Assembly (NCBI GenBank): GCA_963797095.1
Contig: CAWCNY010000002.1
Span: forward strand, 896,001 to 960,000
DNA length: 64,000 nt
Reading direction: 5' to 3'
DNA from: an uncultured Chloroflexia bacterium
GTDB taxonomy: Bacteria; Chloroflexota; Chloroflexia; QHBQ01; JADMIH01
Position 1 is the stretch's first letter. Every line of letters starts with the position of its first letter. Position numbers and translations under genes: made by a program. The notes below the pieces were generated by a model, which ran no database searches, was not told where the DNA came from, and saw nothing but the letters and a program-made list of their open reading frames with translations. Below are positions 3,225 to 53,019 of this stretch, piece by piece.

Positions 3225-3314
3225 CGAGTTACAGCATAAGCACTCGTCACTTACCACTTGCCCGCCCTGAAATCAAATCGGCCATTATTACACTCAATGA
3301 GGAGAACCAAACCA

Positions 3315-4580
3315 ATGTCGGCAGAACCAAAACTACACAAGCCTAACCCATATCAGGTAGCCGTCGAGCAATTTATGATTGCCGCCGAGAAGCTGAACCT
3401 GGAAGAGGGGATGAAGCAGGTACTTTCCAAACCCAAGCGCGAGTTGATCGTGAACTTCCCCGTCCGCATGGACGACGGTTCCCTGCGCGTCTTTACCGGT
3501 TTCCGGGTGCAGCATTCCCTCACTCGCGGCCCCGCAAAAGGCGGTATCCGCTATCACCAGGATGTTTCCCTTGACGAGGTGAAAGCCCTCGCCATGTGGA
3601 TGACCTGGAAGTGCGCCACCGTCGGTATTCCCTACGGTGGAGGCAAGGGCGGCGTTATTGTTGACCCCAAGCAACTGAGCCTCGCCGAGACCGAGCGCCT
3701 CACTCGCCGCTTCGCCGCCGAGATAGCCCCTATCATCGGCCCCGAGGTGGACATCCCCGCTCCCGATGTGAACACCAACTCTCAGACGATGGCCTGGATA
3801 ATGGACACCATTTCCATGATGCGCGGCTATCCGATCCCCGGCCTCATTACCGGCAAACCTATCGCCGTCGAAGGCTCGCTTGGGCGCAACGAAGCGACCG
3901 CGCGCGGTCTCCAGTACGTGGTGCGTGAAGCCGTCAAAGAGCAGGGGATGGACCTCAAGGGTGCTCGTGTTGTGGTGCAGGGCTATGGCAACGCAGGCGC
4001 GATTGCTGCCCGCCTCCTCTCCGAGGATGGGGCTACTGTTATCGCCGTCTCAGACAGCAAAGGTGGCATCTACAACACAAAGGGTATCGATCCTGTGAGC
4101 GCCCTCCGCTACAAGCAGGAGCACGGCACCCTCTCCGGCTTCGCAGGCTCGGACGATATCTCCAACGAGGCTATCCTGGAGGTCGATTGCGACATCCTGG
4201 TGCCCGCCGCTCTCGAAAGCGTGATCACAGAGAGCAACGCCTCTCGCATCAATGCCAGGATGATCGCCGAGGCCGCCAACGGCCCCACCACCCCGGAAGC
4301 TGATCGCATCCTGTATGACAAGGGGATTATGGTCCTACCTGATATCCTGGCGAACGCCGGTGGCGTGACCGTCTCGTATTTCGAGTGGGCTCAGAATATC
4401 CAGGGCTACTACTGGGCAGAGGACGAGGTCAACGAGAAGCTGGAGCGCGTGATGAAGCGTGCCTTCCTCGATGTACACCAGATCTCCGACAACAACTCGG
4501 TAGATATGAGGACCGGTGCCTATATGCTGGCTATTTCGCGTGTAGCTGAAGTAACCCGCCTGCGCGGCATCTTCCCGTAG
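3315..4580 (+). CDS. gdhA: Glu/Leu/Phe/Val dehydrogenase (probably glutamate dehydrogenase)
   Basis: GPAKGGIRY, GGGKGG, DIPAPD, QGYGNAG, NAGGVTVSYFEW motifs; AGGAG RBS. Confidence 0.93.
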   Translation: MSAEPKLHKPNPYQVAVEQFMIAAEKLNLEEGMKQVLSKPKRELIVNFPVRMDDGSLRVFTGFRVQHSLTRGPAKGGIRYHQDVSLDEVKALAMWMTWKCATVGIPYGGGKGGVIVDPKQLSLAETERLTRRFAAEIAPIIGPEVDIPAPDVNTNSQTMAWIMDTISMMRGYPIPGLITGKPIAVEGSLGRNEATARGLQYVVREAVKEQGMDLKGARVVVQGYGNAGAIAARLLSEDGATVIAVSDSKGGIYNTKGIDPVSALRYKQEHGTLSGFAGSDDISNEAILEVDCDILVPAALESVITESNASRINARMIAEAANGPTTPEADRILYDKGIMVLPDILANAGGVTVSYFEWAQNIQGYYWAEDEVNEKLERVMKRAFLDVHQISDNNSVDMRTGAYMLAISRVAEVTRLRGIFP

Positions 4581-7867: not shown

Positions 7868-8011
7868 AAACTCCTATCCTCCTATTTATTGGCTGAGTTG
7901 AAGTTATCGCGAAACCTACCAAGTATACCACTATCAATGCCACTAAAGTTAAGGGGCTAAGGGGCTAAGCGATCAAAGACCAAAGAATTAAGACTAAAGC
8001 AGTATCAAGCA

Positions 8012-8047
8012 CAACAAAAAGGGCGGTGAGAAGCCGCCCTTTTTGTT
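8012..8047 (-). terminator. Intrinsic terminator of the 8072-11284 gene
   Basis: aacaaaaagggcgg-tgagaag-ccgccctttttgtt hairpin with A/T tails on both sides. Confidence 0.75.
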
Positions 8048-8071
8048 ACTTTATGTCTACTTCGCTTGTCT

Positions 8072-11000
8072 CTACTGTTTGTTATCGCTGGGAGTGTAGC
8101 AGTTGGGATAGAAGGTGTTCGCTACTATCTTCGATGCTTGTCCTCTCGTCGCGTTGGAGCCTGGCCTGAAGTATGGCAGGTTGTCTGGGCCTACACACGG
8201 CTCTCCCGGGCTGCCGCATGGGTATCCGTTCATGATGCCAAGGTCTGTCAGCCTCCAGATGTAGTCGTAGAACGTCGAGCCTGGCAGTACGTCCTCGAAC
8301 TGCTGTGCTCCAGGTGTCGTGTTGTACCCTGCTGCCTCTGACACTATCTTCGACAGTTGTCCTCTCGTGATGTTGGCGTTCGGTCTGAAGTACGGCAGGT
8401 TATCCGGCCCTACACACGGCTCTCCTGGGGAGCCACATGGGTACCCTGTCACGATGTTGCGGATTGCCAGCCTGTTGATGAACGCGTAGAACGTTGAGCC
8501 TGCCGGTACATCCTGGAACATCTGCAGTCCTGGGTCGTCGTTGAAGCCAGCCGAGTTGGACACTATCTTGGATAGCTGACCTCTTGTGACCAGGTTACCA
8601 GGGCGGAAGCATGGATTGCCAGTCTCACACCCTGTCGAATAGCCGTTGATGATGCCTCTGCATGCCAGGCACCTGATGTAGGTGTAGAAGGTGTTGTCTG
8701 GCAGCACATCTGTGAACTGCATTGGACACGAGGTTGGTGTGGCTGTTGGTACCCCTGGTGTGTCGGTGGAGGTGGGTGGCACTAGTGCTGTGTCAGTCGG
8801 TGGCACTACTGCCGTATCGGTTGGAGGCACCACTGGTGTACCCGTGTCAGTTGGAGGCACCACTGGTGTATCTGTTTCGGTTGGCAATACGGGTGTGTTG
8901 GTAGCTAAGCTTGTTGAGGTGCTCGTTGCAAGCGTACCGGTTGGAGTGCTAGTGGGTGTGCCGGGCGTGTCAGTGCTCGTTGGTATGGTGGTGTTCGTAC
9001 TGGTAGGTACCGTTCCCGTGGGGCTGTTAGTAGGTGTGCCGGTAATAGTAGGCGTATTTGTCGGGGCATTGGTGGGCGTATTGGTGGGTACGCTCGTAGG
9101 TGTGTTCGTGTCTGTAGGTGTAACGGTGACCGTGCCGGTGCTGCAAGCTCCCGTGATTATGATGTCATCAATGCGCCACCCTGTGGCTGATACACTGCTG
9201 TCTGTGCCTTCCCTGAACCTTACCAGCAGGTTCTGCCCTGCATATGGGCTGAGGTCCACCACACTCTGTACATACCCACTGCTCGAGGCTACCCATGCCT
9301 GCCTGCTTGCCAGCGGGTTATTGCAGCATGTGGATACCGTGCCTCCATACCCTCCTGAGATGATGTTAGCTCCCATATCAGCCCAGGTGCTCCCACCATT
9401 GGTAGAAGCCTCAAGCACTCCTCCATCGTAGTAATTGGAGCCGTTGAACTCGAAGGCGTAGTCATGCCAAAAGGTGAGTTGTGAGCCTGCCACGGGCACC
9501 ACAGCAGAGACTAGGGTAAGTTGTTGGTCCGATATATTACTTACATCGGGGGCGAATGCTGAGAAGCTGCCTGAATGTGGACTGGCAGCCTGGGCAGCCC
9601 ACCCACACCCACCAGGCACACAGGTGGGAACCACCGAGGTGAATGCCCCAAGCGTCCCCGACTCAAATCCTTCGGCCAGTACCACCCCACAAACTGTAGG
9701 GCTGGGTGAAGGTGTGCGCGTGCTCGTGCTTGTGAGTGTACTGGTGTTTGTGGGCGTGGAAGTAGGAGGAGTGCCCGTTGGCGTGGGGGTTGCCGTACCT
9801 CCGCCTTGCAGGCTCATGCTTCCCATATAGAGATCGAATTGATGCAGAGTGCCGTTGGCGTTGGTGCCATCGCAGTTGGCGTTATCCGCCCACATCCCGA
9901 CGAACCTGCCTGCATAAGCGTCATTAGCCACGTAGTCGCCATAGTCAATGCCGTTGCCGGCATCATCAGCATTCGAGAAGCCGCCGCTCAGGCGCTGGTT
10001 GGGTGCCCAGGTGGCCCCACCATCGGTGGTATAAGTCGCATAATACTCGGAGTCGTCGTTGGGCGTATTGTTCGTGCCTCCTGAGCCGGGCACGCCGTCG
10101 TCGTTGCGCGCATCGTGGAAGCTCACTGCTACAGTTCCGCTTGTCCGGTCGAGCGCGATGTACGGCAGGAACTGGCTGCGAATTGGACCTGATGGATCAT
10201 CGTTCACACGCACAGGCGCAGACCATGTCGTGCCGTCATTGTCCGACGTGCGCACATATATATCCATGTCGTTGCTTTCGTTGACAATCTCTTCCGTATA
10301 AACCATGTATACGCGTCCATTGTACGGCCCGCCGGTCGAATCCCACACAAGCCCGGACTCAGCATCGACCGAGCGGCCCGACTGTGCCGGGATATAGTCG
10401 AATCCGCCCACGTTAGTGGTCGTTACCGTGATCTGCGACCCGAAGTTCGATGGGCCAAGACCGTCCGGGTCCACATTGGCATAGATAGTGGCTGGGCCTT
10501 GCCCTCCTGTTGGGTTCTGGTACACGATCATGACCTTGCCGCCGGGGCCTACCGCGATGCCTCCAAAGCTACCGGAGGCGCTTGGCGGTGTTTGTGTGGC
10601 GGCGAACGGTCCGTAAACGCCAAGTCCTGTGACCGGCGCACCACGCGCCCTCATGCTTCCGCTCTGGTTCCAGTCTACCCACACGCTTCCAGCGCCAACG
10701 GCAATTGAAGGCTGGTCGATGCTGCCTGAACCTACTGTAAGGGGCGCGGTGAAAGTCACTCCGCCATCGGTGCTTGAGATCACATTGATCTGGTTGACCG
10801 AGCCGTTGATATACACCAGGAAGAGATTGCCGTATGTATCGAACACTGCCTGCCCATCGCAGCAAGCCACGCCTGTCGCGACCGAGCCGCGTGTCCACGT
10901 AGTGCCGCCATCGAATGAATACGCCCGGAATATGTTGTTGACCGATGCCTCATTGGAAAACGCTACCAGGTTTTGCGTATTGGTCGGGTTGATGAGTATA

Positions 11001-11284
11001 GCGCTCTCGGATTGGTTACCGCTTTCTACGCTGACATTGACCACAGGTTCCACGCACGCTTGCGGTTGGTAGCTCGTATCGGGCGGTGTTGTTCCCGGTC
11101 TATCTGCCGGGGGTGGAACCTTGAGCGTACCATCCTGTACATCGACCTTGGTTCCCCCCTGGATAATTGCCCCGGAGAGCGCTGCTTCTTGCGGCCCAGC
11201 GGTCGCCGGTGCGCTGCTCACCACCAGGAATGCCAATAGAACCAGGATTGCAACAGTGATTGTTGACCAGTATATGCGCCGCAT
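8072..11284 (-). CDS. Secreted BNR/Asp-box (sialidase-like) beta-propeller + beta-sandwich module + Thr/Pro linker + three SLH domains
   Basis: Signal peptide; SxDGGxTW repeats; EGFESG...GWRIDDI module; C-terminal FxDV...FY...GYPCG..GEPC...PYFRP...TRGQ repeats. Confidence 0.85.
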   Translation of the reverse strand: MRRIYWSTITVAILVLLAFLVVSSAPATAGPQEAALSGAIIQGGTKVDVQDGTLKVPPPADRPGTTPPDTSYQPQACVEPVVNVSVESGNQSESAILINPTNTQNLVAFSNEASVNNIFRAYSFDGGTTWTRGSVATGVACCDGQAVFDTYGNLFLVYINGSVNQINVISSTDGGVTFTAPLTVGSGSIDQPSIAVGAGSVWVDWNQSGSMRARGAPVTGLGVYGPFAATQTPPSASGSFGGIAVGPGGKVMIVYQNPTGGQGPATIYANVDPDGLGPSNFGSQITVTTTNVGGFDYIPAQSGRSVDAESGLVWDSTGGPYNGRVYMVYTEEIVNESNDMDIYVRTSDNDGTTWSAPVRVNDDPSGPIRSQFLPYIALDRTSGTVAVSFHDARNDDGVPGSGGTNNTPNDDSEYYATYTTDGGATWAPNQRLSGGFSNADDAGNGIDYGDYVANDAYAGRFVGMWADNANCDGTNANGTLHQFDLYMGSMSLQGGGTATPTPTGTPPTSTPTNTSTLTSTSTRTPSPSPTVCGVVLAEGFESGTLGAFTSVVPTCVPGGCGWAAQAASPHSGSFSAFAPDVSNISDQQLTLVSAVVPVAGSQLTFWHDYAFEFNGSNYYDGGVLEASTNGGSTWADMGANIISGGYGGTVSTCCNNPLASRQAWVASSSGYVQSVVDLSPYAGQNLLVRFREGTDSSVSATGWRIDDIIITGACSTGTVTVTPTDTNTPTSVPTNTPTNAPTNTPTITGTPTNSPTGTVPTSTNTTIPTSTDTPGTPTSTPTGTLATSTSTSLATNTPVLPTETDTPVVPPTDTGTPVVPPTDTAVVPPTDTALVPPTSTDTPGVPTATPTSCPMQFTDVLPDNTFYTYIRCLACRGIINGYSTGCETGNPCFRPGNLVTRGQLSKIVSNSAGFNDDPGLQMFQDVPAGSTFYAFINRLAIRNIVTGYPCGSPGEPCVGPDNLPYFRPNANITRGQLSKIVSEAAGYNTTPGAQQFEDVLPGSTFYDYIWRLTDLGIMNGYPCGSPGEPCVGPDNLPYFRPGSNATRGQASKIVANTFYPNCYTPSDNKQ
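9132..9674. repeat. 543-bp direct repeat, copy 1 (other copy 15413-15955)
   Basis: Line-by-line comparison shows no differences; constant offset 6281 bp. Confidence 0.92.
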
Positions 11285-11524
11285 ATAGAACCTTCCTTCC
11301 TTGCTGAGAATAACTACCTGCAAATAACCGGATAATCATAGCGAATCGTGCGCACAAAGATGAAGCAGGGACATATAGATGGGTAACATTGGAGCAGTAG
11401 GATCGTTGTCCCCTTGAGTTCGGATGAGAACGCACTGTGTTGAGGGGCCTCAAGAATATTCTAGCGACTAGATTGTAGATTGTAGCACCTATTCTTCTCG
11501 CTTGTCAATCACCGATCCGCTTGG

Positions 11525-12151
11525 GGGTGCGCGCCATCGTTTAGGCGACTTTTCTGAGAGGGCGAGTTTTGGGCCAGCATTGCTCCCACCTCTCACTGAG
11601 CAGTTCGGCTCTCAGTGTCAGCACCCCTTGTGCTCCTGGTTTGCTCCAACACATGCCTGCTCCCTTGAGACGGGCACCAATCAGCCGCTTGCATGCACTC
11701 TCCACCGTGCCTGAACCAACTGGGAAGCCCAATGCCCGGTACTCGGAGTAGCGCATCCTCTCTTTGTTCGTCTGGAAGTAATGAATCTGCTCTCGTGCCG
11801 CTTCTCCCGCCTCCCCTTCACGTTTGCTCTCTCTGTGTAGAGCCACAATGACTGCTTCTACCCTTCCCTCCCATAATTCCTTCTCCCAACGCTTCACCCA
11901 TCTTGCGGCGTCTGGTGTGCCCTGCCCGAAGATACCATTACCTGCTTGCCACAGGTGCTCCATGGCGTGATACCAGTCGAGTACCTCTACCCTGTTGGCA
12001 AAGTGCTCATCGAACTGTATCCAGTTGGTGGGTGCCCCATCTCCCAGACATACAACCTGCTCCTCAGGGCCTATCCCTCTCCTCCATGCTTCAGCACTCA
12101 ACCGCTTTCCTGCCCGCTCCATCGAGCCGACCTCCGCCACATAGCTCTGAT
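11525..12151 (-). pseudogene. 3' remnant of an ISKra4-family element (transposase C-terminal half plus one end)
   Basis: GDGAPTNW, LDWYHAMEHL, GSGTVESACK, RLKGAGMCWS motifs; GGGTGC end at about 11525; 5' part replaced by the adjacent IS. Confidence 0.85.
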
Positions 12152-13697
12152 GGGTGGCTCAGATAGGGGGCGAGTTGTAGACCAGGTGCCAGCACTGATC
12201 GAAGCGTGAACTGAGGATTGCCGTCCGCACTGGCAACAGCTTTTCGGCACCCAGGCGGCTCCAACGCATACCTGCTCCGGCGAAGCGAGCCTTGAACTGC
12301 TTGCCTGCGCTCTCCACCGTGCCTGAGCCAATAGGGTAACCTGCTTCGCGCATCTGGGAGTAGTTCATACGATGTGCGTTATTGCTGAAGTAACCAGCCT
12401 CAATGTTTAGCTGTTCAGCTTGTTTTGGTTGCCGCTCTGCCAAGTCAGCTAGCACCTGTGCCAAGTAGCCTGCTCCACCCTCAAATAGCAGCTTTTTCTG
12501 TGCCTCTAGCCATTGTTTGGAGGCGCTCGCGTCGCCTTCGTGTGATGCTAAAGATGCTTGGGCCAGGTGCTGCGCTCCATGATACCAGTCTACCAGTTGA
12601 GCACTGTCATACAAGTGCTCGGTGGCCAGGTTCCAAATCCACCCAGCACCATCTGCTACTACCAGCGTGTGATCAGCCCTCTCCCACCCTCTGTGGTGTG
12701 CCTCTCCCCATAGCATCTGTCCGAACACGGTGGGTCCGCCTAGATGGGCTACATAGCTTTGGTTAGTAGCACGGGCACGACTATCTTCGCTTCCTTCCTC
12801 CTCAAACTCAGTGGCCAATGCAGGCTCCGTTTTATCAGCCTCCATCTCCATAGCTTCAATGTCGAAGACGCACCCCACCTTCAACTCTTTCCAACCTTCC
12901 CCACGAATGTGGATCATAGCGCCATCCATACTCGCACCCATCTTTGTGAATTGCCCAAGGCACCCCAGGCACCCCAGGCACCCCAGGCACCCCGGGCGCA
13001 AATGCGTTGGAACCTTCTGCCTTAGAACCTTCCCTCTCGACCTGTATATGTACATCGTTGGCGGAGTTGGCTGCTCTCCACCGTGCAGCCTCCACCTCTC
13101 CAAAGCTACTACCCCACTCCTGGCACAGCCTCCAAACAGTGCTGTCGGAGATGGACACACCTCCTATCTGCTCAAGTACTTGTGCCCCTCTCTCGAAGTC
13201 CACCAATCCTCCCAGCCATACTGACTGCTTGAATATCCATTCGCTCCAATGCACGTCCCACAAGTGCAACTGCTCATCCAGGGGGGAAAAGCCCCTTACG
13301 GCAGTAGGAGCAATAGTAGTAGGAGCGTTGTACTTTGATGGTGCCTATCCTGCTTTCCACAGGGTGAGCCTTCTCTCCCTTGTAGCGCATCTCCCGGTTG
13401 CACTCAGGACAAGGTGGGCCAGGTACATTCTGAGTGGAGACCTCTTGCTGTGCCAGCACCGCTTGTGCCATCTGCTCACTCAGTTGAGTGCGCAGCTTCA
13501 CTACCGCCTCCTCGATCTGAGCTAGTGTGGGTTGGGGGGTGTCGGCTGACCAGCCAATCAGTTGTTCAATTGCTTGCTCTGCCTGTGCCATCAGGTCCGC
13601 CTTCATCTGTTCTCGGGTACGTTTCATCAGGAGCCTCCATGCTACGCGCAAGATCCTCCTATTATCTCAAACCTTGCCCCCTATCTGAAATGCACCC
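12152..13697 (-). mobile_element. ISKra4-family insertion sequence with a split transposase
   Basis: Terminal IRs gggtggctcagatagggggcgag / cttgccccctatctgaaatgcaccc; transposase in three frames (13651-13274, about 13283-12958, about 12957-12159) with CPEC..YYYC, DG..W, LVDWYH and GSGTVES motifs; no target duplication seen. Confidence 0.88.
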
Positions 13698-13752
13698 TAC
13701 GCTTATTCGACATAAGCCGCCTGGTCTTGCTGGGCAATGTGATACTCCAGAT

Positions 13753-13803
13753 AATAAGCAAAGGGAGGTGGACGGCTGGACCATCCATCTCCCTTTGCTT
13801 ATT
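13753..13803 (-). terminator. Hairpin terminator of the 13816-17646 gene
   Basis: ataagcaaagggaggtgga/tccatctccctttgcttat inverted repeat. Confidence 0.7.
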
Positions 13804-13815
13804 ACTCCCTTCCCT

Positions 13816-16800
13816 TTACGGTGAATAGGTCACGGCCAGATAGACGATCTTGCTGATCTGGGCGCGAGTTGCGTTGTCTCCCGGCAGGAAGTAAGGCTTA
13901 TTCCCCGGCGCTACACATGGGCCTGCGGGTGGTGTCCCGCATGGATACCCTTCCACCACGCCATGTGCAACAGCCGTCTCTATGAACTGGTAGAAGGTAC
14001 TTCCCTTAGCCACGTCCTGGAATGTGTTAGTTGCTGGATCAAGCAGAGTCCAGTTCGTGGGGTCTGCGATTATGGCCGCATTTACCACGATCTTCGATAG
14101 CTGGCCCCTCGTGATGTACGCGTCCGGCCTGTAGGTGTTGTCCGGGTAGCCTGAGAAGATACCAAGATTGAAGCCGGTCTCTACATAAGGGTAGAAAGTG
14201 CTTCCCACCCTCACATCGCTGAAGTGTGGCCCGCCGCTGGTGTTGATCGGGAAGTCGAACGCCAACACCACGATCTTCGCCATCTGCCCGCGAGTGGTGT
14301 TGTTGCCCGGCTTGAAGCAATTGACGCCAGGTGCGCTGCACGGAGGCGAGGTGCTATATCCATTCACCACCCCATGACAGTACAGGTAATGCACGTAATC
14401 GTAATACCAGTTGCCAGGAACCACATCCTCGAAGCTCATCGGACAGAGGGTGGCCGTAGCGGTGGGCATGTTGGTGGGCGTGCCTGTCCTGGTCGGCGTG
14501 TTAGTTGTCGTGTTTCCGGGCGGGTTGGTAGCGGTTCTTGAAGGTGTATTCGTAGCAGTGTTGGGAGGAGCGCCGGTTGGGGTCCTGGTTGTAGTACTGG
14601 ATGGCGTGTTGGTAGCAGTATTGATAGGCGTCAGAGTTGCAGTATTGGACGGTGTGCTGGTAGTTGTGTTCGACGGAGTGCCGGTCGTAGTAGTATTGGA
14701 TGGGGTATTGGTAGCGGTATTGACAGGCGTGCCGGTCGCGGTGCTCGTAACTGTGTTTGTGTTAGTTGAGGTCCTGGTTGGCGTACTGGTTGGTGGTGGG
14801 GTGCCCGTTGGAGTGTTGGTGGGAATGTTGGTTGGGGTGTTGGTCGGTGCATTTGTACTACTAGGGGTATTGGTGGGTAAGTTGGTTGGGGTCCTGGTTG
14901 GAGTACTAGTTGGCGGTGTAGTGCCTGTCGGAGTACTAGTTGGCGGTGTAGTGCCTGTCGGAGTACTGGTGGGTATGTCGGTTGAAGTGTTGGTTGGCAC
15001 AAGCGTACTGCTTGGGGTATTGGTTGTCGTATTTGTCCGCGTAGGAGTGTTGGTGGGCGGTAACGTGGCGGTAGGAGTATTCGTCGGAACAGGGGTGAAT
15101 GTGGCTGTAGGCGTACTGGTCGGCACATTCGTAGATGTTGCCGTAGGCGTATTTGTGTGGGTTGAAGTGGCCGTAGGCGTATTGCTCGCTGTACCGGTTG
15201 CGGATGGTGTATTGGACGCGGTACTGGTCGCCGTTGACGTGTTACTCGGCGTACTCGTTACAGTGGAAGTACTGGTCGAAGTGTTCGTTCGTGTGGGGGT
15301 GCTGCTGGTCGTGTTGGTCGCCGTTGACGTGTTAGTGGCCGTATTTGTTCCGGTTGGCGTATTAGTCGGTACGCTGGTTGGTGTACGAGTTGACGTACTG
15401 GTGGAGGTAGCTGTGCCGGTGCTGCAAGCTCCCGTGATTATGATGTCATCAATGCGCCACCCTGTGGCTGATACACTGCTGTCTGTGCCTTCCCTGAACC
15501 TTACCAGCAGGTTCTGCCCTGCATATGGGCTGAGGTCCACCACACTCTGTACATACCCACTGCTCGAGGCTACCCATGCCTGCCTGCTTGCCAGCGGGTT
15601 ATTGCAGCATGTGGATACCGTGCCTCCATACCCTCCTGAGATGATGTTAGCTCCCATATCAGCCCAGGTGCTCCCACCATTGGTAGAAGCCTCAAGCACT
15701 CCTCCATCGTAGTAATTGGAGCCGTTGAACTCGAAGGCGTAGTCATGCCAAAAGGTGAGTTGTGAGCCTGCCACGGGCACCACAGCAGAGACTAGGGTAA
15801 GTTGTTGGTCCGATATATTACTTACATCGGGGGCGAATGCTGAGAAGCTGCCTGAATGTGGACTGGCAGCCTGGGCAGCCCACCCACACCCACCAGGCAC
15901 ACAGGTGGGAACCACCGAGGTGAATGCCCCAAGCGTCCCCGACTCAAATCCTTCGCTGAACACCACACAAGCGGTAGGAGTAGGTGAAGGTGTGGCGGTA
16001 GAGGTAGGAGGCGTGCCCGTTGCTGTAGGAGTTGGCGTAGCTCCCGTGCAGCCCGGGAATTTGAAGTTCCCTATGCGTGTGCGCCAGTTGAATTGGCCTG
16101 TGGAGGCGTAATACTCGTTGGTGTACCAGAATGTGCAGTCGTCCACCGGATCTACGGTCAGGTCGCTATAGTCACCCCAACGATTGCCGGTGCCTGTTTG
16201 CGAACCTGTGCCCGCAAAGAGAGTGACTTCGCCTTGAGACAGGTTATTGATTGGGTCGGTGGAGAGACGCCCCGCGTAGCGCAACTGAGGGAATATGGAA
16301 GACGACGACGCGCTGAAGCCGACAGCCAGGTTGCCCTGCTGGTCCATCGCCGCACTGCCCAGCCATCTCCAGGTGGTATCCGGCTGGTAAGTGCTCTGCT
16401 GAACGAAACTGGGCGTGCCCGATGTGGCGTTGGTTACCTCCCACCAGCGCACGCCTGCTACCCCGCCTGAGCTAACGCTCTTGTTGCCGACCAGGGCTTC
16501 ATGTCCATCGGTGAAGCGCCTGTACGCCAGGCGGAACATCGGCCTGTCGCCTATCCCGTCCAATCCGCTGGCGGTGCCCGACTGCGGCACGCAGTTGCGG
16601 GTGGCCGAACACAGGGTAGTGTAGCCCGCCGGTGAGAGGTTGGTCGCCAGGGTAAATGTGCTGTTGGCCGGAGTTGCGAAGTCCACATGGTACCGGTAAA
16701 CGGGCCATGTGGACCCCGAAGCACCCATGAAAGGCGCGGGAGCGCCGGCAGGCGGTAGTATCGAGCCGTCGATGTCAGCCGGTAGCATGAAACCTATTGC

Positions 16801-17646
16801 CGTGGAAAGTGGGCTGGCTGTAGATAAGAAGGTGGCTGCCCCGCCCGTCAGCATAGCAGAGCGATCAAAAGCGAACGGCTGAGGCCCCAGGTAAGTGGTG
16901 CCAGCAGTGTTGAACACATTGTCGCCCATATAATAGGCATCGGGCCACACGCCGATATGTGGGTAGTCGAAGAAGTTGGAACCGAGGTGGAACCCGTACC
17001 GGTAATAAGTCCCTGTTGCGTCGCTTGTTGTCGAGATAGCGATGCACTCGTCGGTGGGAACCGAGCTACCGGCGAACTGGCTGACCAGCCAGCGATTCGC
17101 CAGTTGATCGTATAGCACAATAGGGTCCCCGTGCCCTGCCGTTTCGCACACCCCTCCGAAGCCGTTCCAGAGGCTGATAATCGAAAGAGGGCCAAGCACG
17201 GATGCGCCGGTAGTCTTATTGAACACCTGGAAGCCTTCATTCACCATCTGCACGTATTGGGTCGCACCCACTTCGCCATCGGTGTCGGGTGGCGCGCAAT
17301 TACAGATGACCCCTGGGAACGGTATGCCGTCGAAGTTGAGGATCGGTGTGGGCATTGCGAGCGGCCCCATCACCTTTTGCACAACGGTGTCGGGTTGGTC
17401 GGCGTACTGGACCATCGTGTACGGGTTCGGGTTCGCCTCCACCTCTTTACCGGGGTTGACCTGTATATTCGGCATGTCACGCAAGGGTGGCGTTTCGTCA
17501 TTGTGGTACGAGTGGCCCTCGATCAGGCCCGACGGTACCTTTACCCCGGCGCGGGCCGCATTAGCTGTAAGCAAGATCGCGGCAAGCAAAAACGGGAGCG
17601 CAAGAAGATACTTCCAGTTCCTGTGGCTCTCTTTCCTCGTGTTCAT
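13816..17646 (-). CDS. Large secreted SLH protein: N-terminal beta-rich domain, shared beta-sandwich module, ~330-aa Thr/Pro/Asn linker, three SLH domains
   Basis: Signal peptide; PPDTDGEVG...RWGDYS...DDCTFWY domain; TPT-repeat linker; FxDV...TRGQ SLH repeats. Confidence 0.85.
15413..15955. repeat. 543-bp direct repeat, copy 2
   Basis: Matches 9132-9674. Confidence 0.92.
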
Positions 17647-19743: not shown

Positions 19744-21281
19744 ATGCCTACCCCCATTATATGCGCCGATGGGAGCGTGCGCTACTTCGCCCAGACCTTC
19801 CGTCACTGCTTCAGCAAGCCTCAATTCCAGTACTTTGTTACCGTACTGCTGGCCTTGCTGTTGTGCATGGAAGCTCGTACCCTGTGTGGACTGCACCGTG
19901 CTGTGTGCGGAGGCGGAGTACGCACCCGCGCTCGCGCTTACTGTGGCCTGAGCCGCTTCTTGAGCCGCGCTCCTTGGGAAGGGCAGGCTGTTGTGGCTGC
20001 CTGGTGTGCCCGTTTCCGAGCACAACTTGCCCCCCAGGTAGCCCAAGAGCGTGCCACCTTGCGTAGTCACCACCGACGCTACACCGGTCGGGGTCGTAAG
20101 GGTCGCCTTCCTGCTCGTGTAACCTCTGTGACCGGTTCTTGATTGGAGACGACTCCACCATGCACAAGCCCAAAGGCCGCAAGATGGCTGGGATAGGCCG
20201 CCACTTCTCCTCGACGGTGGGGCACCCGGTGCAAGGGCACAACATGTTGACCACCCTGTATGTGTTGCCTACGTTGGATAGGTGCTGTCCCCAGGCTCCT
20301 TGTCTGTATCGGCAGCGAGAGGTCTGTGAGCGAGAGGGTGTGCCCTTCAAGAGCAAGGTTGACCTGCTGGTGGAGCAGATTGAGAGTTTCGAGCCGGTGG
20401 AAGGGACCGACACCCATGTGCTGGTGGACAGTTGGTTTGGGTGCAAGGCGGTATGGAAGGCGGCTCGGCAGCGAGCCTTCCATATTACCAGTGGGCTGAA
20501 AGCCAATCGCTCCATCCGAGTAGAGCAGCTTGTCGGCGGTACGAGTGCCGCCAGTGCCGCCAGTGCCGCCAGTGCCGCCAGTGCCGCCAGTGCCGCCAGT
20601 GCCGCCAGTGCCGCCAGTGCCGCCAGTGCCGCCAGTGCCGCCAGTGCCGCCAGTGCCGCCAGTGCCGCCAGTGCCGCCAGTGCTGCAGACTGGTGTTGGC
20701 AGCCTCTGCCGGAATATGTGGCGGGCTTGAGCGAGGCCGATTACGTGCTGGTACGCTGGCCCAGAAGCGAACTCGGTTGCGGTCGCGATGCCGATGCCAA
20801 AGGGGAGGTGAGCACTGTGTACGCGCATGCGATTACCACAATGGTGCGTAAGCTGTACAAGTGCCAGGTGCTGGTAGTGAGGCACAGCCTGGGTGCTCCT
20901 GTGTCCGAGACCAGATACTGGGCATCGAGTGACTTGGGGGCAAGTGTGGAGCAGTTGCTGCAATATGTAGCGGCACGCTGGGACATCGAGGTGCTGTTTG
21001 CCGACTGCAAGGAGTTGATGGGGCTTGACCACTACCAAGTGATGAGCGCCCCGGCTATCGAGCGGTTCTGGACGTTGGTGTTGGCGGCGTACCTGCTCTT
21101 GGACGAGGAGCGTGCCCGTTTGCAGGCCACCACGACCGAGACTGAACATGTTCGTGTGACCATCGGGGATGCGCGCCGAGAAATGCAGCGAGTGCATCGG
21201 CGGCACTTGCTGGATTGGCTGCATAAGCAGTTTGTGGCGGGTGTTGCTCAGGAGCATCTGTATGACCTATTCGCCGCTTGA
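19744..21281 (+). pseudogene. IS701-like transposase, frameshifted near 20137, with an in-frame (SAA)16 expansion
   Basis: ORF 19744-20142 continues in a shifted frame as LIGDDSTMHK...VLVDSWF...RWDIEVLFADCKELMGL. Confidence 0.85.
20544..20687 (+). repeat. 9-bp tandem repeat (AGTGCCGCC)15 plus one degenerate unit
   Basis: Directly visible in the sequence. Confidence 0.97.
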
Positions 21282-37654: not shown

Positions 37655-37859
37655 ATATGCCAAGATTAATGTTTCTTACTACTTCCATTCCTGGAACAAT
37701 TGTGATAATATAGGCCCATCAAAACGGCGCGAAGGCTACCCTTCACGTTATCAATGACGCTGTCGAGCGTCACTATTGCTACGGCTGGCGGCCCACGCTG
37801 TAGCGCCGGTGAGGCCATCAATCCAATATCCACATGTCAAGTCAAGAGAGGAGAGCAGG

Positions 37860-39209
37860 ATGCCAAAGGTCAGACCTTTACTCATTTTGGCCGTAGTTGC
37901 CTTACTTGGTGCTATAGCCATTCTTGGAGCCTTCGCACTAGGTAATCAGGGAAGTACTGTAGCTTCGAGCGGCACGGAGCTAACGGTACCGAGAGCAAAC
38001 ATGGGAATGGCAGCCAACTTCCAGGCATCGCCAGCCACAGGCAAAGGGAGCACAGCCTCCCTCCCCTTCGCCAATATTCGGGTCAACCAGGACCAGGGAA
38101 TAGAAGCTCAAAATGAGCCTTTCATAGCTGTCAATCCGTCCAATGCCCGCCACATCGTGGTAGGAGCCAACAACTGGGAAGCAGGCAATGGCCGCTTCGA
38201 AGTCACAGCCTACGTCTCCTTTGACGGAGGAGTGAGTTGGGCCACCTCCCACCCATACATCGATAGGAACGCAGGTCGCCTCAACGCCGCAGACCCCACA
38301 GTATCATTCGGGCAGGACGGAACGGTGTACTTCGGGTTCGTAGCCATGACCCCAGCCCCAGGAGCAGTGGCAGTGTCCACCTCCCATGATGGAGGGCTGA
38401 GTTGGTCCTCCCAAAGTTGGGCCACCCCCTTCACCACCCAGGCGGACAAGCCGGCCATAGCAGAGGCAGCGGGCAAGCTGTACGTCTTCTACCAGAACAC
38501 CTCCCTGATGAGCACAGTATCCTCAAACGGAGGAGCAAGCTGGTCAGCAGCCTCCACGATAGAGGCAGGAGGGAAGAACGCAGCCCCAGTAGTGGACAGC
38601 CACGGCAACGTATATGTCTTCTACAACACCCCCACCGCCATCAGGGTAGCCCGCCCAGGAATGGGAAGGATAGTGACCGTGTCGGACGCAGTAGCGCTGC
38701 AATCGAGGCCGGTGCAGTACCGAGCGGGAGTATACCCGACAGCGGGAGTAGACGGGCATGGAGTGCTGTACGTAGCATGGGCAGATGGTAGGAACATCAG
38801 CACAGGCAACGACATCATGGTCTCACGGTCAACCAACGGGACGAGTTGGAGTGGAGCCGAGAGAGTGAACACAGACGCAGGGTATGCAGACCAGTTGATG
38901 CCGGCGCTAAGTGTAGGGAGAGACGGGGCAGTATCGATAGCATGGTTAGACACTCGGAATGACCCGTCAAGAGTGAACTACGACGTGTACATGGCCCGCT
39001 CAGAAGATGGAGCAAGCTGGAGTGGGGCAAACAGCAGGGTAAGTGCGGTATCATCGAACCCGAACAACGACCCGAGGATGCAAGGGCAGCTAATCGGGGA
39101 CTACTTCGCACTAGGAGCGGGAGATGGAGGAGTGTACGTGGTATGGACAGACACTCGGAATGCCAACGAGGACATCTACCTCGCTCCTGTCCCTACCTCT
39201 AACAACTAA
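37860..39209 (+). CDS. Secreted BNR/Asp-box sialidase-like beta-propeller
   Basis: Signal peptide; QNEPFIAVNP; SxDGGxSW repeats; IGDY; WTDTRN. Confidence 0.85.
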   Translation: MPKVRPLLILAVVALLGAIAILGAFALGNQGSTVASSGTELTVPRANMGMAANFQASPATGKGSTASLPFANIRVNQDQGIEAQNEPFIAVNPSNARHIVVGANNWEAGNGRFEVTAYVSFDGGVSWATSHPYIDRNAGRLNAADPTVSFGQDGTVYFGFVAMTPAPGAVAVSTSHDGGLSWSSQSWATPFTTQADKPAIAEAAGKLYVFYQNTSLMSTVSSNGGASWSAASTIEAGGKNAAPVVDSHGNVYVFYNTPTAIRVARPGMGRIVTVSDAVALQSRPVQYRAGVYPTAGVDGHGVLYVAWADGRNISTGNDIMVSRSTNGTSWSGAERVNTDAGYADQLMPALSVGRDGAVSIAWLDTRNDPSRVNYDVYMARSEDGASWSGANSRVSAVSSNPNNDPRMQGQLIGDYFALGAGDGGVYVVWTDTRNANEDIYLAPVPTSNN

Positions 39210-50305: not shown

Positions 50306-51469
50306 TCATAACATGGCCTGACCAATTTCCACCTGTTCTACAAATCCTCTCAAGGGTGCAACACCCTCAGCGTTCTCAATTGTCTCAAGCAATATCCGCC
50401 GAGCCCTCACTTGGCTCCTCTTCCTCTCGATTGCTTGCTTTATAGACTTGCATGTGTAGATCAATAGAAAGATTATGACCACAACCAGTAATATCAGGAA
50501 GAGAATAGCCATTAGGTTTGAAAACGCTTTTTGGGTCCATGCATCATACAGCAAGATAACAGCTAGCGCTAGTTCACCTAACGCACCCCACAATGTGAGG
50601 AATGCCGTCCATACAAAGACAGTAGCGGTAGTCTCTGGTTCTTTCTTCTCTGGGGGAACCTTAAGAGTTGAATTATAGATAATAGGCGCAAACACAATCA
50701 GCAACGCGAAGAAGATCCCCAGACCTGTAATTCCAGCTTTGGATATGATGCGTGAATTGTCCGACAGGAAAGCACTGCTAAGCTGAGTGGTAATGGTGGT
50801 TGCTATCGCCATATTGGTTGCCCAACTCTTTCCAAAATCCAAAGTGAGCGGTCCAGGGAGTTTCGTGCTATCAAGTGCCTCTCTCTTCTCTTTAGATGCC
50901 AAAGACACCGGCACAATAACAATGAAGCTGACAACAAGCGTAACAACCGCCACTATGAAGTCCGATAGGGAAGAGATCTGTGGGGGATCAGTTTTCGGGG
51001 TTGAGAGGCTTACAGCGCGCGACCCCGCCCCCAGCTTCGTCCCATCATCAGTCTTCCCTTCAACCAGCAGAAAACCTTTCTTAGCTGATGGTTTAGCTGT
51101 GAGGGTCAACGTCAGCACAAATGGTTTTTCTGAATATGAACTTATCATTGTATCTTCTGGATCTGCCAGGGAAAGTGAAGTTGTAACGATCCCTTTCTCA
51201 TCCGTCATGACAAGCGTGAACCGTATTCCGGATACGTCCGAAGCACTGGTGTTTTCCACAATTACACCTGCGGACCCTTGATACGATGTCTGTGCTGTCG
51301 CAGATAGGGAAACAGTTAGCTCACTGGAGTCCTTGAATCGTAATGCGGGTGTCGCTGTTCGCGCATAACCCTGACCGATTACGACGATAAAGTGGGTGAT
51401 GCCAAAAAGAAGCAAGGAGATGAGTACGAATGCTAATAATACTTTGGGGCGCATTTCTGATCTAGCCAT
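50306..51469 (-). CDS. Hypothetical membrane protein (N-terminal anchor, soluble domain, about 5 C-terminal TM helices), low GC
   Basis: Long ORF with hydrophobic segments; AT-richer than its neighbours; AAGG RBS. Confidence 0.6.
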   Translation of the reverse strand: MARSEMRPKVLLAFVLISLLLFGITHFIVVIGQGYARTATPALRFKDSSELTVSLSATAQTSYQGSAGVIVENTSASDVSGIRFTLVMTDEKGIVTTSLSLADPEDTMISSYSEKPFVLTLTLTAKPSAKKGFLLVEGKTDDGTKLGAGSRAVSLSTPKTDPPQISSLSDFIVAVVTLVVSFIVIVPVSLASKEKREALDSTKLPGPLTLDFGKSWATNMAIATTITTQLSSAFLSDNSRIISKAGITGLGIFFALLIVFAPIIYNSTLKVPPEKKEPETTATVFVWTAFLTLWGALGELALAVILLYDAWTQKAFSNLMAILFLILLVVVIIFLLIYTCKSIKQAIERKRSQVRARRILLETIENAEGVAPLRGFVEQVEIGQAML

Positions 51470-51694
51470 TTGCGGCCTTCCATTATCACACATGCGTAAG
51501 CATCATAGAACATAAAGTGGGCGCTTCTTGATGCGAAAACAAGCAGGAAATTGAGGCTGTGCTTAGCGCTGCAAATGCCGCCAACTAAGATGGCGTCAGC
51601 AAAACAACGAAATTATACTGCAGGTTGACTCCTCTTGCCTACTATCAAACTGACCATGTTGGAATTGCTTTCAATCATTACTCGGCGTTAGAGA

Positions 51695-53019
51695 GTTGGT
51701 GTATTATCTTTTCTGTAAATTGGGAAATGTGGACCGGCTGAGATAGACAGCAGGTCAGGGTGTATCCTTTGAGTTGCGAAACACCAAAAGGAGGGCACCC
51801 ATGACCTACCAGCCAGATTATACGTTATCGCAGGAACTGTTGGAACGTCTCAACGAAGAAGGATTAGACGCTTTACCAGAGATGATTCGAATCGTCATTA
51901 ACTCAGCTATGCAAGCTGAGCGGCTCAAATAGTTGGGTGTTGGTGCTCCTTACGAGCGCTCTGCGGAGCGGCAGGACCAGTCCAACGGTTACAAGCCAAA
52001 GACGCTCAAGACCAGAGTGGGTGAGATTACCTTCTCTGTGCCCCAGGTGCGACAGGGCGACTTCTACCCTGGAGCCCTGGAGAAGGGACTGCGCTCGGAG
52101 CGTGCTCTCACACTGGCGTTGGCAGAGATGTACGTGCAAGGGGTCTCGACGCGCAGAGTGGCAGCCATCACCGAGAAGCTATGCGGTACCCAGGTATCCA
52201 GTGCTGCAGTGAGCCGAGCTGCCTCCCAGTTGGACGAGGTGCTGGAAGGGTGGCGCAACCGACCGCTGGGGGAGTGTCCCTACCTTATCCTGGATGCCCG
52301 TTATGAGAAGGTGAGGCAGGACGGGCAGGTGAGAGACGCTGCAGTGCTGATTGGTATTGGCATCACCCGTGCAGGGCGACGGCAACTGCTGGGAGTATCG
52401 GTATCTTTGAGCGAGTATGAGGTGCATTGGCGCACCTTCCTGCAGAGCCTGGTATCGAGGGGGCTATCAGGAGTGAGGATGATAACATCCGACGCTCATG
52501 AGGGGCTGGGGGCAGCACGCAAGGCGGTATTCGGAGGAGTGCCCTGGCAGCGGTGCCAGTTTCATCTGCAGCAGAATGCCCAGGCTTATGTTCCCCGGCA
52601 GGAGATGAAAGCTGAGGTAGCCCAGGACATTAGAGCCATCTTCTCGGCATCATCATTGGAGCAGGCCAAACAGATGCTGGACAAAGCGGTTGCGAAGTAT
52701 GAGAAGAGCGCTGCTCGCCTATCGCACTGGCTGCAAAACAACATCTTGGAAGGGTTGACCGTCTTTGCCCTCCCACAATCACAGTGGCGATCCCTTCGCA
52801 CCACCAACGGGCTGGAACGCATCAACCAGGAGGTACGCCGGCGGACCAGAGTGGTGGGGATCTTCCCCAACGAGGCGAGTTGCCTGCGCTTGGTGACGGC
52901 AGTGCTGATGGAGATCAGCGACGAATGGGAGACAGGCCGAGCTTACATGACTTTTGACTACTGATTGACCAATTTAGAGGAACACCCTGACCAATTTACA
53001 GAAAAAGGCTTGCATAATC
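51695..53019 (+). mobile_element. IS256-family insertion sequence
   Basis: Imperfect terminal IRs sharing ttttctgtaaattgg / ccaatttacagaaaa; 8-bp target duplication GTTAGAGA at 51687-51694 and 53020-53027. Confidence 0.93.
51801..52964 (+). pseudogene. IS256 transposase with an in-frame TAG at 51930-51932
   Basis: ATG at 51801 with GGAGG RBS, in frame with NGYK...GVSTR...LDA...SDAH.GL...QRCQFH...TTN.LER.N.E. Confidence 0.9.

Follow-up and report, generated by a model that had tools for sequence, protein, structure and literature searches.

The relative abundance of dinucleotides in a genome, the genome signature, was reportedly the subject of work by Karlin. In Neurospora and other fungi, repeat-induced point mutation (RIP) requires a C5-methylase-like enzyme, changes mainly CpA to TpA, and leaves copies that are full of C-to-T differences. 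Here we describe a CpG-poor 543-bp cassette, which encodes an InhA-like MAM domain and is present in two copies in neighboring surface protein genes, together with the repeated and mobile DNA that shares its composition in the genome of an uncultured Chloroflexia bacterium. The window is the whole analyzed stretch of 64,000 nucleotides (G000:C2:896001-960000), and the genome (G000) is a 6.02-Mb assembly of eight contigs that originates from a soil metagenome, with a GC content of 58% and a completeness of 93.24%.

Genomic islands have been located by their atypical dinucleotide relative abundance (van Passel et al. 2005, PMC1310630; IslandPath-DIMOB, PMC6022643). The CpG underrepresentation of Mollicutes has been attributed to the CpG-specific C5-methyltransferases M.SssI and M.MpeI (Wojciechowski et al. 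2013, cited in PMC11282364), and avoidance of restriction sites has been described for mobile elements as well as for genomes (Rusinov et al. 2015, PMC4687349). Genome-wide CpG variation in bacteria has been examined in relation to growth temperature (Forni et al. 2024, PMC11282364); that article cites a study which concluded that methylation does not chiefly account for the CpG deficiency of bacteria. No paper on CpG depletion confined to bacterial insertion sequence (IS) elements turned up in full-text literature searches, which is not proof that none exists.

The initial annotation had reported, from hand counts, that CpG is scarce in the cassette and in several other repeats, and recounting gave the same numbers. 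Positions 9181 to 9660 contain 14 CpG in 480 bp (observed/expected ratio [o/e], 0.36; GC, 0.569; TG+CA o/e, 1.51), against 16 in the 120 bp from 10021 to 10140 of the same gene (o/e, 1.53; GC, 0.592) and 9 in the 60 bp from 2461 to 2520 of gatB (o/e, 1.68). The stretch from 8580 to 8760, which encodes SLH repeats, is also low (4 CpG; o/e, 0.30), and there is no CpG at all in 62221 to 62280 or 63061 to 63120 of a GH5 gene. An o/e of ≤0.36 occurs in only 15 of 50,129 overlapping 480-bp segments of the genome, which makes the flagged segment extreme.

Gene A (8072 to 11323, minus strand) is predicted to encode an SLH-anchored surface protein of 1,083 amino acids (Pfam SLH, BNR_2, and InhA-like_MAM), in which an N-terminal BNR/sialidase-like domain with normal CpG is followed by the MAM cassette, Pro/Thr linkers, and SLH repeats. 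Gene B (13816 to 17646, minus strand; 1,276 amino acids; Pfam SLH and InhA-like_MAM) encodes another SLH-anchored surface protein with the second cassette copy, and fragments of two ISKra4-family elements sit between the two genes. Cassette copy A (9132 to 9674, minus strand), the core of the flagged stretch, has 18 CpG (o/e, 0.42) and is the longest block identical to copy B (15413 to 15955, minus strand): 543 of 543 bases are the same, and the identity breaks off abruptly inside Pro/Thr linkers on either side. The match to PF20773 (InhA-like MAM) just reaches the cutoff of 26.9 bits, with 27.0 bits in gene A (E = 3.8e-6) and 26.9 bits in gene B (E of ∼4e-6). Given the amino acids of the cassette and the codon usage of the genome, ∼50 CpG are expected and 16 are observed (Poisson P = 1.5e-8). 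The amino-acid-controlled CpG ratio (observed CpG divided by the CpG expected from the protein sequence under genome codon usage) is 0.25 to 0.38 per 60-codon block of copy A and 0.8 to 1.3 in the N-terminal BNR domain of the same gene; the repeated and unique parts score 0.51 and 0.95 in gene A and 0.41 and 0.93 in gene B. The SLH anchor module of gene A (8084 to 8803, minus strand) is moderately CpG poor (ratio, 0.32 to 0.81) and is common to ∼10 to 14 other places in the genome (self-match depth, 10 to 14), with a best partner that is 99% identical. Since there are 0 differences between the cassette copies, their CpG-poor state must be older than the duplication, and their copying or recombination in from a CpG-poor source must be very recent. 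Logan contig pieces that stem from one study (three soil-metagenome runs) agree with 9026 to 9571 at 0 differences; these pieces reach only parts of 8000 to 14000, none of them spans the cassette borders, and the match is weak support for sequence accuracy because that study may be the source sample.

The claim that low CpG goes with repeated and mobile DNA was confirmed for the whole genome and survived control for amino acids and codon position. Repeat depth was taken from a megablast self-comparison of the genome, in which another copy exists for 9.7% of bases, and the gene set (4,465 genes) came from our own caller based on open reading frames (ORFs) and codon usage. The genome as a whole is not CpG depleted (rho, 0.966). 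Across 12,034 bins of 500 bp, mean CpG o/e falls with rising self-match depth from 0.996 (n = 10,158) through 0.941, 0.891, 0.833, and 0.712 to 0.642 in the top class (n = 54; >9.5 extra copies), TG/CA o/e climbs from 1.10 to 1.28, and 122 of the 170 bins with a CpG o/e of <0.6 are repeated. The deduplicated repeat pool still has a CpG rho of 0.756. Observed CpG relative to that expected given the protein drops from 0.98 to 0.48 across depth classes, in every one of three codon contexts. The codon-context ratios are 0.50 to 0.83 for r23 and 0.37 to 0.95 for r31, and Arg CGN (r12) stays at 0.92 to 0.98 in all but the top copy class.

The depletion concerns CpG specifically, and apart from CpG contexts the codon usage resembles that of the host. 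Among two-fold codons ending in Y, C makes up a fraction of 0.477 before G in transposases, 0.537 in shared modules, and 0.643 in unique genes; before non-G, the values are 0.713, 0.763, and 0.696, respectively. The NCG share of NCN codons is 0.173 in transposases and 0.198 in shared modules versus 0.297 in unique genes, and Arg CGN is scarcely swapped for AGR (0.256 versus 0.224). From unique to repeated DNA, CG goes from 0.98 to 0.77, TG/CA from 1.09 to 1.20, AT from 1.16 to 0.91, AG/CT from 0.99 to 1.10, and TpA from 0.83 to 0.75; the falls in TpA and AT are changes that CpG decay would not predict. CpG o/e is 0.77 in coding and 0.74 in noncoding repeats, compared with 0.99 in unique coding and 0.92 in unique intergenic DNA. 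Because unique intergenic DNA stands at 0.92, the repeats are not merely at the neutral composition of the host, and a drift to that composition under relaxed selection is ruled out. A single contig acting as a CpG-poor plasmid reservoir is ruled out by the CpG of unique DNA, which is 0.97 to 1.01 in 8 of 8 contigs. Among the 88 segments of 480 bp with a CpG o/e of ≤0.45, 18 are nonrepeated, and several of these are intergenic (e.g., G000:C5:647161-653280).

Families with at least three gene copies are mostly transposases from unrelated IS families. Among these families are ISKra4 (12 genes), two IS66 families, IS701-like and other DDE transposases, IS21 (both genes), ISAzo13-like, IS110, IS256, IS3, and Tn3, with amino-acid-controlled ratios of 0.46 to 0.94. 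ISKra4-like lineages that have diverged to 33% amino acid identity within G000 all have CpG o/e values of 0.57 to 0.67. The remaining CpG-poor repeats are modules of at least 94% identity within large surface proteins; SLH domains are present in 14 of 16 examined module-bearing genes, together with subtilase, Kelch, or BNR parts. In 27 nontransposase genes with such modules, the ratio is 0.63 in the repeated part versus 0.86 in the unique part, and it is lower in the repeated part in 22 of the 27 (p = 1.6e-5). Where the best partner is <90% identical (129 genes), shared parts score 0.92 to 0.98, so old paralogues are not depleted. The family of SLH-anchored surface proteins includes 8072 to 17646 and ∼25 other genes (e.g., C2:129909-192918, C2:505675-537941, C5:359484-367790, and C5:487184-499654), with proteins of up to 4,156 amino acids and Pro/Thr linkers. 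Its N-terminal enzymes and propellers are interchangeable (subtilase, Kelch, BNR, and GH5), and its anchor and internal modules are 94 to 100% identical, an identity that points to concerted evolution or cassette exchange.

The signature reaches its greatest strength in G000, is less pronounced elsewhere in the genus, and does not appear in the sample from the wider phylum. The genomes G016, G021, G022, and G032, which are flagged as unpublished, are included in the counts on cassette relatives and loci, chromosome samples, ISKra4 homologues, PF00145, and genus IS256, and the unpublished-flagged G078 is included among the multicopy IS256 genomes of the wider phylum; none of the conclusions rests solely on such genomes. 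ISKra4 homologues have CpG o/e values of 0.73 to 0.78 in the same genus and 0.78 to 1.24 in other families and phyla. For DDE_Tnp_1 ORFs, the means of four same-genus genomes are 0.69 to 0.85; among 27 ORFs of the same genus and 3 of the same-order genome G026, 26 of 30 lie below their flanks and 14 of 30 below 0.8. Among 150 other Chloroflexota drawn for comparison, the 30 such ORFs have a mean of 1.02, with one below 0.8 and 12 of 20 under their flanks. IS256 in the same draw averages 1.01 over 21 loci versus 1.02 in the flanks (10 of 21 lower), including genomes with 7 to 11 copies, and in the genus it is mildly low (11 loci; mean, 0.90; 5 of 8 under their flanks). The nearest sampled relatives of the G000 IS256 (59 to 67% amino acid identity) come from families of the phylum other than that of G000, and two of these relatives reside in CpG-poor genomes (flanks, 0.78 to 0.84), and the same-genus copies are merely 48% identical to it. 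CpG depletion as a general trait of IS elements was not established, given Chloroflexota samples without such a tendency; in Escherichia coli K-12, IS1, IS30, IS5, and an IS911 fragment have values of 0.80 to 1.03 versus 1.13 to 1.33 in core genes, a comparison that is anecdotal with four elements.

The MAM cassette family is native to the clade; 32 of 40 relatives have it, frequently at many places in one genome. Its homologues have a mean CpG o/e of 0.95 (29 loci; range, 0.65 to 1.18) versus 0.99 for the rest of the loci, so that the low CpG cannot be ascribed to the domain family as such. The closest cassettes (G005, G003, and G017) are 62 to 67% identical and lie behind other N-terminal domains. 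As their genes share no N-terminal domain with gene A, there is no orthologue for polarizing the cassette changes. MAM-like cassettes are highly amplified in some relatives (G011, 23 matches; G012, 14 matches), where several frequently lie in tandem inside one open frame.

The initial annotation had gone further and proposed that multicopy DNA is selectively methylated or mutated, with a shared CpG-poor pool as the simpler alternative. Three refuting conditions were set beforehand, concerning a correlation with copy number, the state of single-copy foreign genes, and an excess of CpG-to-TpG changes between copies. Over 51 transposase families, there is no significant dependence on copy number (Spearman, −0.17; p = 0.23), the mean CpG o/e being 0.74 for families with 1 copy, 0.75 for 2, 0.74 for 3 to 5, and 0.65 for >5. 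Single-copy foreign genes are not spared, since single-copy transposase families have the same mean as those with 3 to 5 copies; among 3,380 single-copy genes, 10 have an o/e of <0.70, and 7 of these 10 encode transposases, one with a weak Pfam match. Between copies, no CpG-to-TpG excess was found. Among polarized singletons from the 13 families that have 4 or more copies, 22 transitions removed and 27 created a CpG; the singleton transition rates per site are 0.0112 at CpG, 0.0062 at other C sites, and 0.0127 at A/T; in gene-family alignments, the corresponding values are 0.054, 0.039, and 0.050. Across 451 pairwise matches, a conserved CpG shows C/T differences ∼1.3 to 2.6 times as often as other contexts do, depending on the context and identity band (at 95 to 99% identity, 0.0141 versus 0.0067 to 0.011). 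A many-fold excess of losses is what hypermutability of 5-methylcytosine (5mC) or RIP would give, and it is not seen among the copies.

A search for CpG methyltransferases gave 0 matches to PF00145 in the 93.24% complete genome G000, and the same search was positive in 9 of 14 control genomes; C5-methyltransferase genes of this family are present in 21 of 40 relatives and in 11 of 24 same-genus genomes. N6/N4-type methylases have 5 matches in G000, of which 2 are full length. An SRA-domain nuclease (PF02182) was looked for in G000 and not found. McrBC-family and Mrr-family nuclease genes (G000:C2:1011526-1012446 [L275] and G000:C7:130088-130441 [L277]) are candidates for methylation-dependent restriction.

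Our preferred reading, to which we assign a probability of about 0.72, is that the low CpG and the TG/CA surplus form a compositional signature, one that the mobile and recombining DNA of G000 passes on with each copy and that does not respond to copy number. Of the initial proposal, the tracking of mobile DNA by low CpG thus stands and the selective methylation or mutation of multicopy DNA does not; the shared CpG-poor pool is what survives. This pool would consist of at least 10 unrelated IS families and of near-identical modules swapped among genes for SLH-anchored surface proteins, and every copy would take the signature over from its source copy. The MAM cassette would have been CpG poor already when it entered two neighboring, otherwise CpG-normal genes on either side of an ISKra4 cluster. 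The dependence of CpG on copy number would arise because DNA that multiplies and recombines is presumably the DNA that circulates horizontally. The pattern resembles that of islands recognized by genome signature: the atypical DNA is tied to mobility genes and cassettes regardless of copy number, its CpG differs from that of the weakly constrained DNA of the host, several dinucleotides (CG, TG/CA, AT, TA, and AG/CT) shift, and the borders are those of the inserted unit. Unlike in such islands, one dinucleotide dominates, GC content and non-CpG codon usage are host-like, and the deviation is common to at least 10 unrelated IS families and to recombining surface-protein modules.

Several observations weigh against an inherited signature of mobile DNA. 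The diverged ISKra4-like lineages, all at 0.57 to 0.67, imply a persistent force and not a single foreign origin. No donor was found: a search for the ISKra4 element among one genome per species gave 6 loci, the best 42 to 46% identical, and a search for the cassette in Joint Genome Institute (JGI) metagenomes gave 1 locus at 42% identity. Chromosome samples (8 to 20 kb) from 20 relatives have CpG o/e values of 0.91 to 1.17 throughout, so that a CpG-poor reservoir is inferred and not seen, and the normal CpG of the relatives' cassettes makes the G000 cassette an outlier in its own family. At the level of genes, CpG still drops with depth (Spearman, −0.40 for transposase-like genes; regression, −0.046 per copy doubling), a correlation that we discount because copies of one family are pseudoreplicates. 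That only modules of at least 94% identity are depleted is also expected from a homology-dependent process, and the small singleton counts fit a steady state and a slow drift to host composition alike.

Two candidates may account for how the pool has been kept CpG poor, namely, methylation and deamination in past reservoir hosts and selection on DNA entry. The first holds that 5mC deamination in CpG-methylating past hosts or vectors eroded CpG to TpG/CpA before the DNA arrived in G000; we regard it as possible, though clearly short of an even chance. The CpG deficit is accompanied by a TG/CA surplus, which is compatible with methylation and deamination somewhere among the past hosts of the elements, and the synonymous contexts reachable by a transition are worst hit, whereas Arg CGN, in which a transition changes the amino acid, is largely spared; surplus and sparing together favor such a mutational history. 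C5-methyltransferase genes are widespread in relatives, as given above, and CpG-poor Chloroflexota carrying related IS256 elements exist. However, the chromosome samples of C5-methyltransferase carriers are CpG normal (0.96 in G003, 0.99 in G005, 0.94 in G007, and 0.98 in G017), the most depleted IS elements are in G012 and G000, both without such a gene, NCG in transposases is replaced about equally by NCA, NCC, and NCT, and no reservoir was identified in the samples of 20 relatives, in the one-genome-per-species search, or in the JGI search. Like the Mollicutes with M.SssI or M.MpeI, the repeats of G000 combine a CpG deficit with a TpG/CpA surplus, but the effect described for Mollicutes is genome wide and goes with a resident C5-methylase, whereas the G000 chromosome is CpG normal (rho, 0.97 to 0.98), lacks PF00145, and has no recent CpG hypermutability. 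Since PMC11282364 documents CpG-poor bacterial genomes without CpG methylation, a CpG-poor reservoir need not methylate; the comparisons described in that article are of whole genomes, and the present case sets the mobile fraction against the core inside one genome.

The second candidate is that selection strips CpG from DNA that often enters new cells, through avoidance of restriction or defense, for instance by escaping methylation-dependent nucleases once transferred from a methylating donor, and this we consider doubtful, less probable than a history of deamination. Coding and noncoding repeat parts are depleted alike (0.77 and 0.74), the depletion has been kept across ISKra4 lineages diverged to 33% identity, and codons are used as in the host wherever CpG is not involved; persistence across diverged lineages and host-like codon usage are explained as well by selection on incoming DNA. 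G000 also has McrBC- and Mrr-family nuclease genes and no C5-methylase. Such a selection would hit entering DNA and spare the chromosome, as in restriction-site avoidance, and the mobile pool avoids CGCG (Markov o/e, 0.70 versus 0.91 in the chromosome) and GATC (0.71 versus 0.94) more than the chromosome does. Classical avoidance concerns specific palindromes, however, and in the repeat pool ACGT, CCGG, GCGC, and TCGA are at 0.95, 0.90, 0.98, and 0.99, respectively, after Markov correction. Palindromes are thus not depleted beyond composition, with just CGCG and GATC standing out against the chromosome, and the deficit therefore lies in the dinucleotide itself. Arg CGN is barely replaced by AGR, although selection should favor this swap. 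We know of no bacterial system that senses bare CpG, and no literature search was made for one. In unique DNA, 6-bp palindromes such as GGCGCC (Markov o/e, 0.19), CTCGAG (0.20), CGGCCG (0.23), and GGGCCC (0.28) are strongly avoided, which suggests a long history of restriction-modification pressure.

A variant that we hold to be improbable is a lineage-specific force that keeps DNA moving between cells CpG poor and leaves the chromosome normal, such as a defense that penalizes CpG, or methylated sites containing CpG, on incoming DNA. The DNA affected would be the IS elements of many unrelated families and the exchanged modules of S-layer-anchored proteins, and the setting is a genome with McrBC- and Mrr-family nucleases but without a C5-methylase, such enzymes being encoded by about half of its relatives. 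A defense of this kind, if real, would be a bacterial counterpart of CpG-based self/nonself discrimination.

Very unlikely, given the tests above, is the idea that the host itself recognizes DNA present in multiple copies and subjects its CpG sites to methylation or mutation, by a RIP-like process or by repeat-targeted 5mC in G000. It would explain why CpG drops monotonically with repeat depth, why solely modules of at least 94% identity are depleted and old paralogues spared, and why ∼70% of the CpG deficit of the repeats is matched by a TG/CA surplus (arithmetic on the dinucleotide figures). The PF00145 gene that it calls for is absent from G000, however, single-copy transposases are just as depleted, the cassette copies are identical, CpG transitions are only 1.3 to 1.8 times as frequent as those at other C sites with gains no rarer than losses, and multicopy IS256 elements of other Chloroflexota are not uniformly depleted relative to their flanks (0.94 versus 1.07 with 11 copies, 1.03 versus 1.24 with 7, and 1.17 versus 1.18 with 11). 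The pattern in G000 is like RIP in that it looks homology dependent, solely nearly identical DNA being affected. It is unlike RIP in that the genome is without such a methylase gene, differences between copies, where there are any, show no CpG bias, and TpA is lower in repeats (0.75 versus 0.83), the opposite of fungal RIP; the (CpA+TpG)/(ApC+GpT) ratio of the repeats is ∼1.26 (arithmetic on the same figures). Methylation or mutation of repeats as in fungi would be a first for bacteria, if true, and the evidence against it removes a false lead.

Least credible of all is an artifact of amino acid composition (rich in Thr, Pro, and Ser and poor in Arg), of lower GC at third codon positions, or of long-read consensus errors in repeats: the surface proteins are indeed rich in Thr, Pro, and Ser, low-GC single-copy genes score low on the codon-usage-based ratio too, and the assembly is an eight-contig one from a soil metagenome, but amino-acid and codon-usage effects are ruled out by the amino-acid-controlled ratios (0.25 to 0.38 in the cassette versus 0.8 to 1.3 in the N-terminal domain of the same gene) and by C3 usage that is lowered solely before G, repeat GC (0.55 to 0.57) is near the 0.58 of the genome, homologous cassettes of relatives are CpG normal, the contig pieces agree with the cassette at 0 differences (from what may be the source sample), and CpG-poor transposases also occur in short-read metagenome-assembled genomes of relatives.

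With an inherited signature as the preferred reading, G000 would be a clean case of mobile DNA with its own CpG-specific dinucleotide signature, limited to one lineage. Within the clade, CpG o/e marks mobile and recently exchanged DNA, including domain-sized cassettes in native genes, which GC content would not. The case also raises the modest question of which force keeps mobile DNA CpG poor beside CpG-normal chromosomes.

The labels that the initial annotation gave to the IS elements of the window held for ISKra4 and IS256, which exceed their NCBIfam cutoffs, and less firmly for IS701, which is the best match of its element and stays below the cutoff. A C-terminal fragment of the 12-gene ISKra4 family lies at 11541 to 12140 (minus strand; CpG o/e, 0.57; depth, 13.8; ratio, 0.49; NF033572 E = 2.3e-57). 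A second ISKra4-like element with 3 copies follows at 12159 to 13651 (minus strand; ORFs 12159-13160 and 13274-13651; CpG o/e, 0.47 to 0.60; NF033572 E = 6.9e-47 and 1.7e-7) and is 33 to 38% identical to the main ISKra4 transposase. An intact 503-amino-acid copy scores 271.5 bits against the NF033572 cutoff of 205, and the fragments in the window, at 195 and 160.5 bits, fall short of it, as is expected of incomplete sequences. Most ISKra4 copies of G000, including that at 11541 to 12140, are split in two frames near residues 190 to 230 of the 503-amino-acid transposase, and the full open frame exists at only two places (C6:53198-54706 and C6:890873-892381); the split may be either a shared frameshift or a programmed one.

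The IS701-like DDE transposase (20139 to 21281, plus strand; Pfam DDE_Tnp_1) belongs to a 4-gene family and has a CpG o/e of 0.77 and a TG/CA of 1.50; its best NCBIfam match, IS701, reaches 115.8 bits, below the cutoff of 150. The IS256-family transposase (51933 to 52964, plus strand; CpG o/e, 0.69; Pfam Transposase_mut E = 4.5e-107) is one of 5 near-identical copies and matches NCBIfam IS256 with 358.5 bits against a cutoff of 150; the copy at L215 has a CpG o/e of 0.71, and its flanks have 1.02. All five copies (L215, L263, L265, L268, and L270; 51864 to 52934 in the window) contain one in-frame TAG near the N terminus of the Pfam match, so that the frame has 405 amino acids with TAG readthrough and 343 from the next start, and a sixth, diverged IS256 (C2:416386-417462) is without this stop.

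Two further genes of the window carry repeated, CpG-poor parts. The GH5 (cellulase-family) protein gene at 62112 to 63995 (minus strand; the window part of a 1,078-amino-acid protein; Pfam Cellulase E = 4.3e-23) has about half of its length in common with another gene at up to 99.8% identity, and the repeated part has a CpG ratio of 0.47, compared with 0.80 for the unique part. A BNR-repeat protein gene (37776 to 39209, plus strand; Pfam BNR_2) is 86% duplicated elsewhere, with a CpG o/e of 0.70, a depth of 0.86, and a ratio of 0.56. The gene at 50306 to 51493 (minus strand), which adjoins IS256, is a single-copy gene for a 395-amino-acid membrane protein with a GC content of 47%, compared with 58% for the genome, and a CpG o/e of 0.75, and it is probably a separate low-GC foreign insertion. 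The glutamate dehydrogenase gene (3258 to 4580, plus strand) has a second genome copy that spans 83% of its length, and the CpG of this copy is normal at 1.03.

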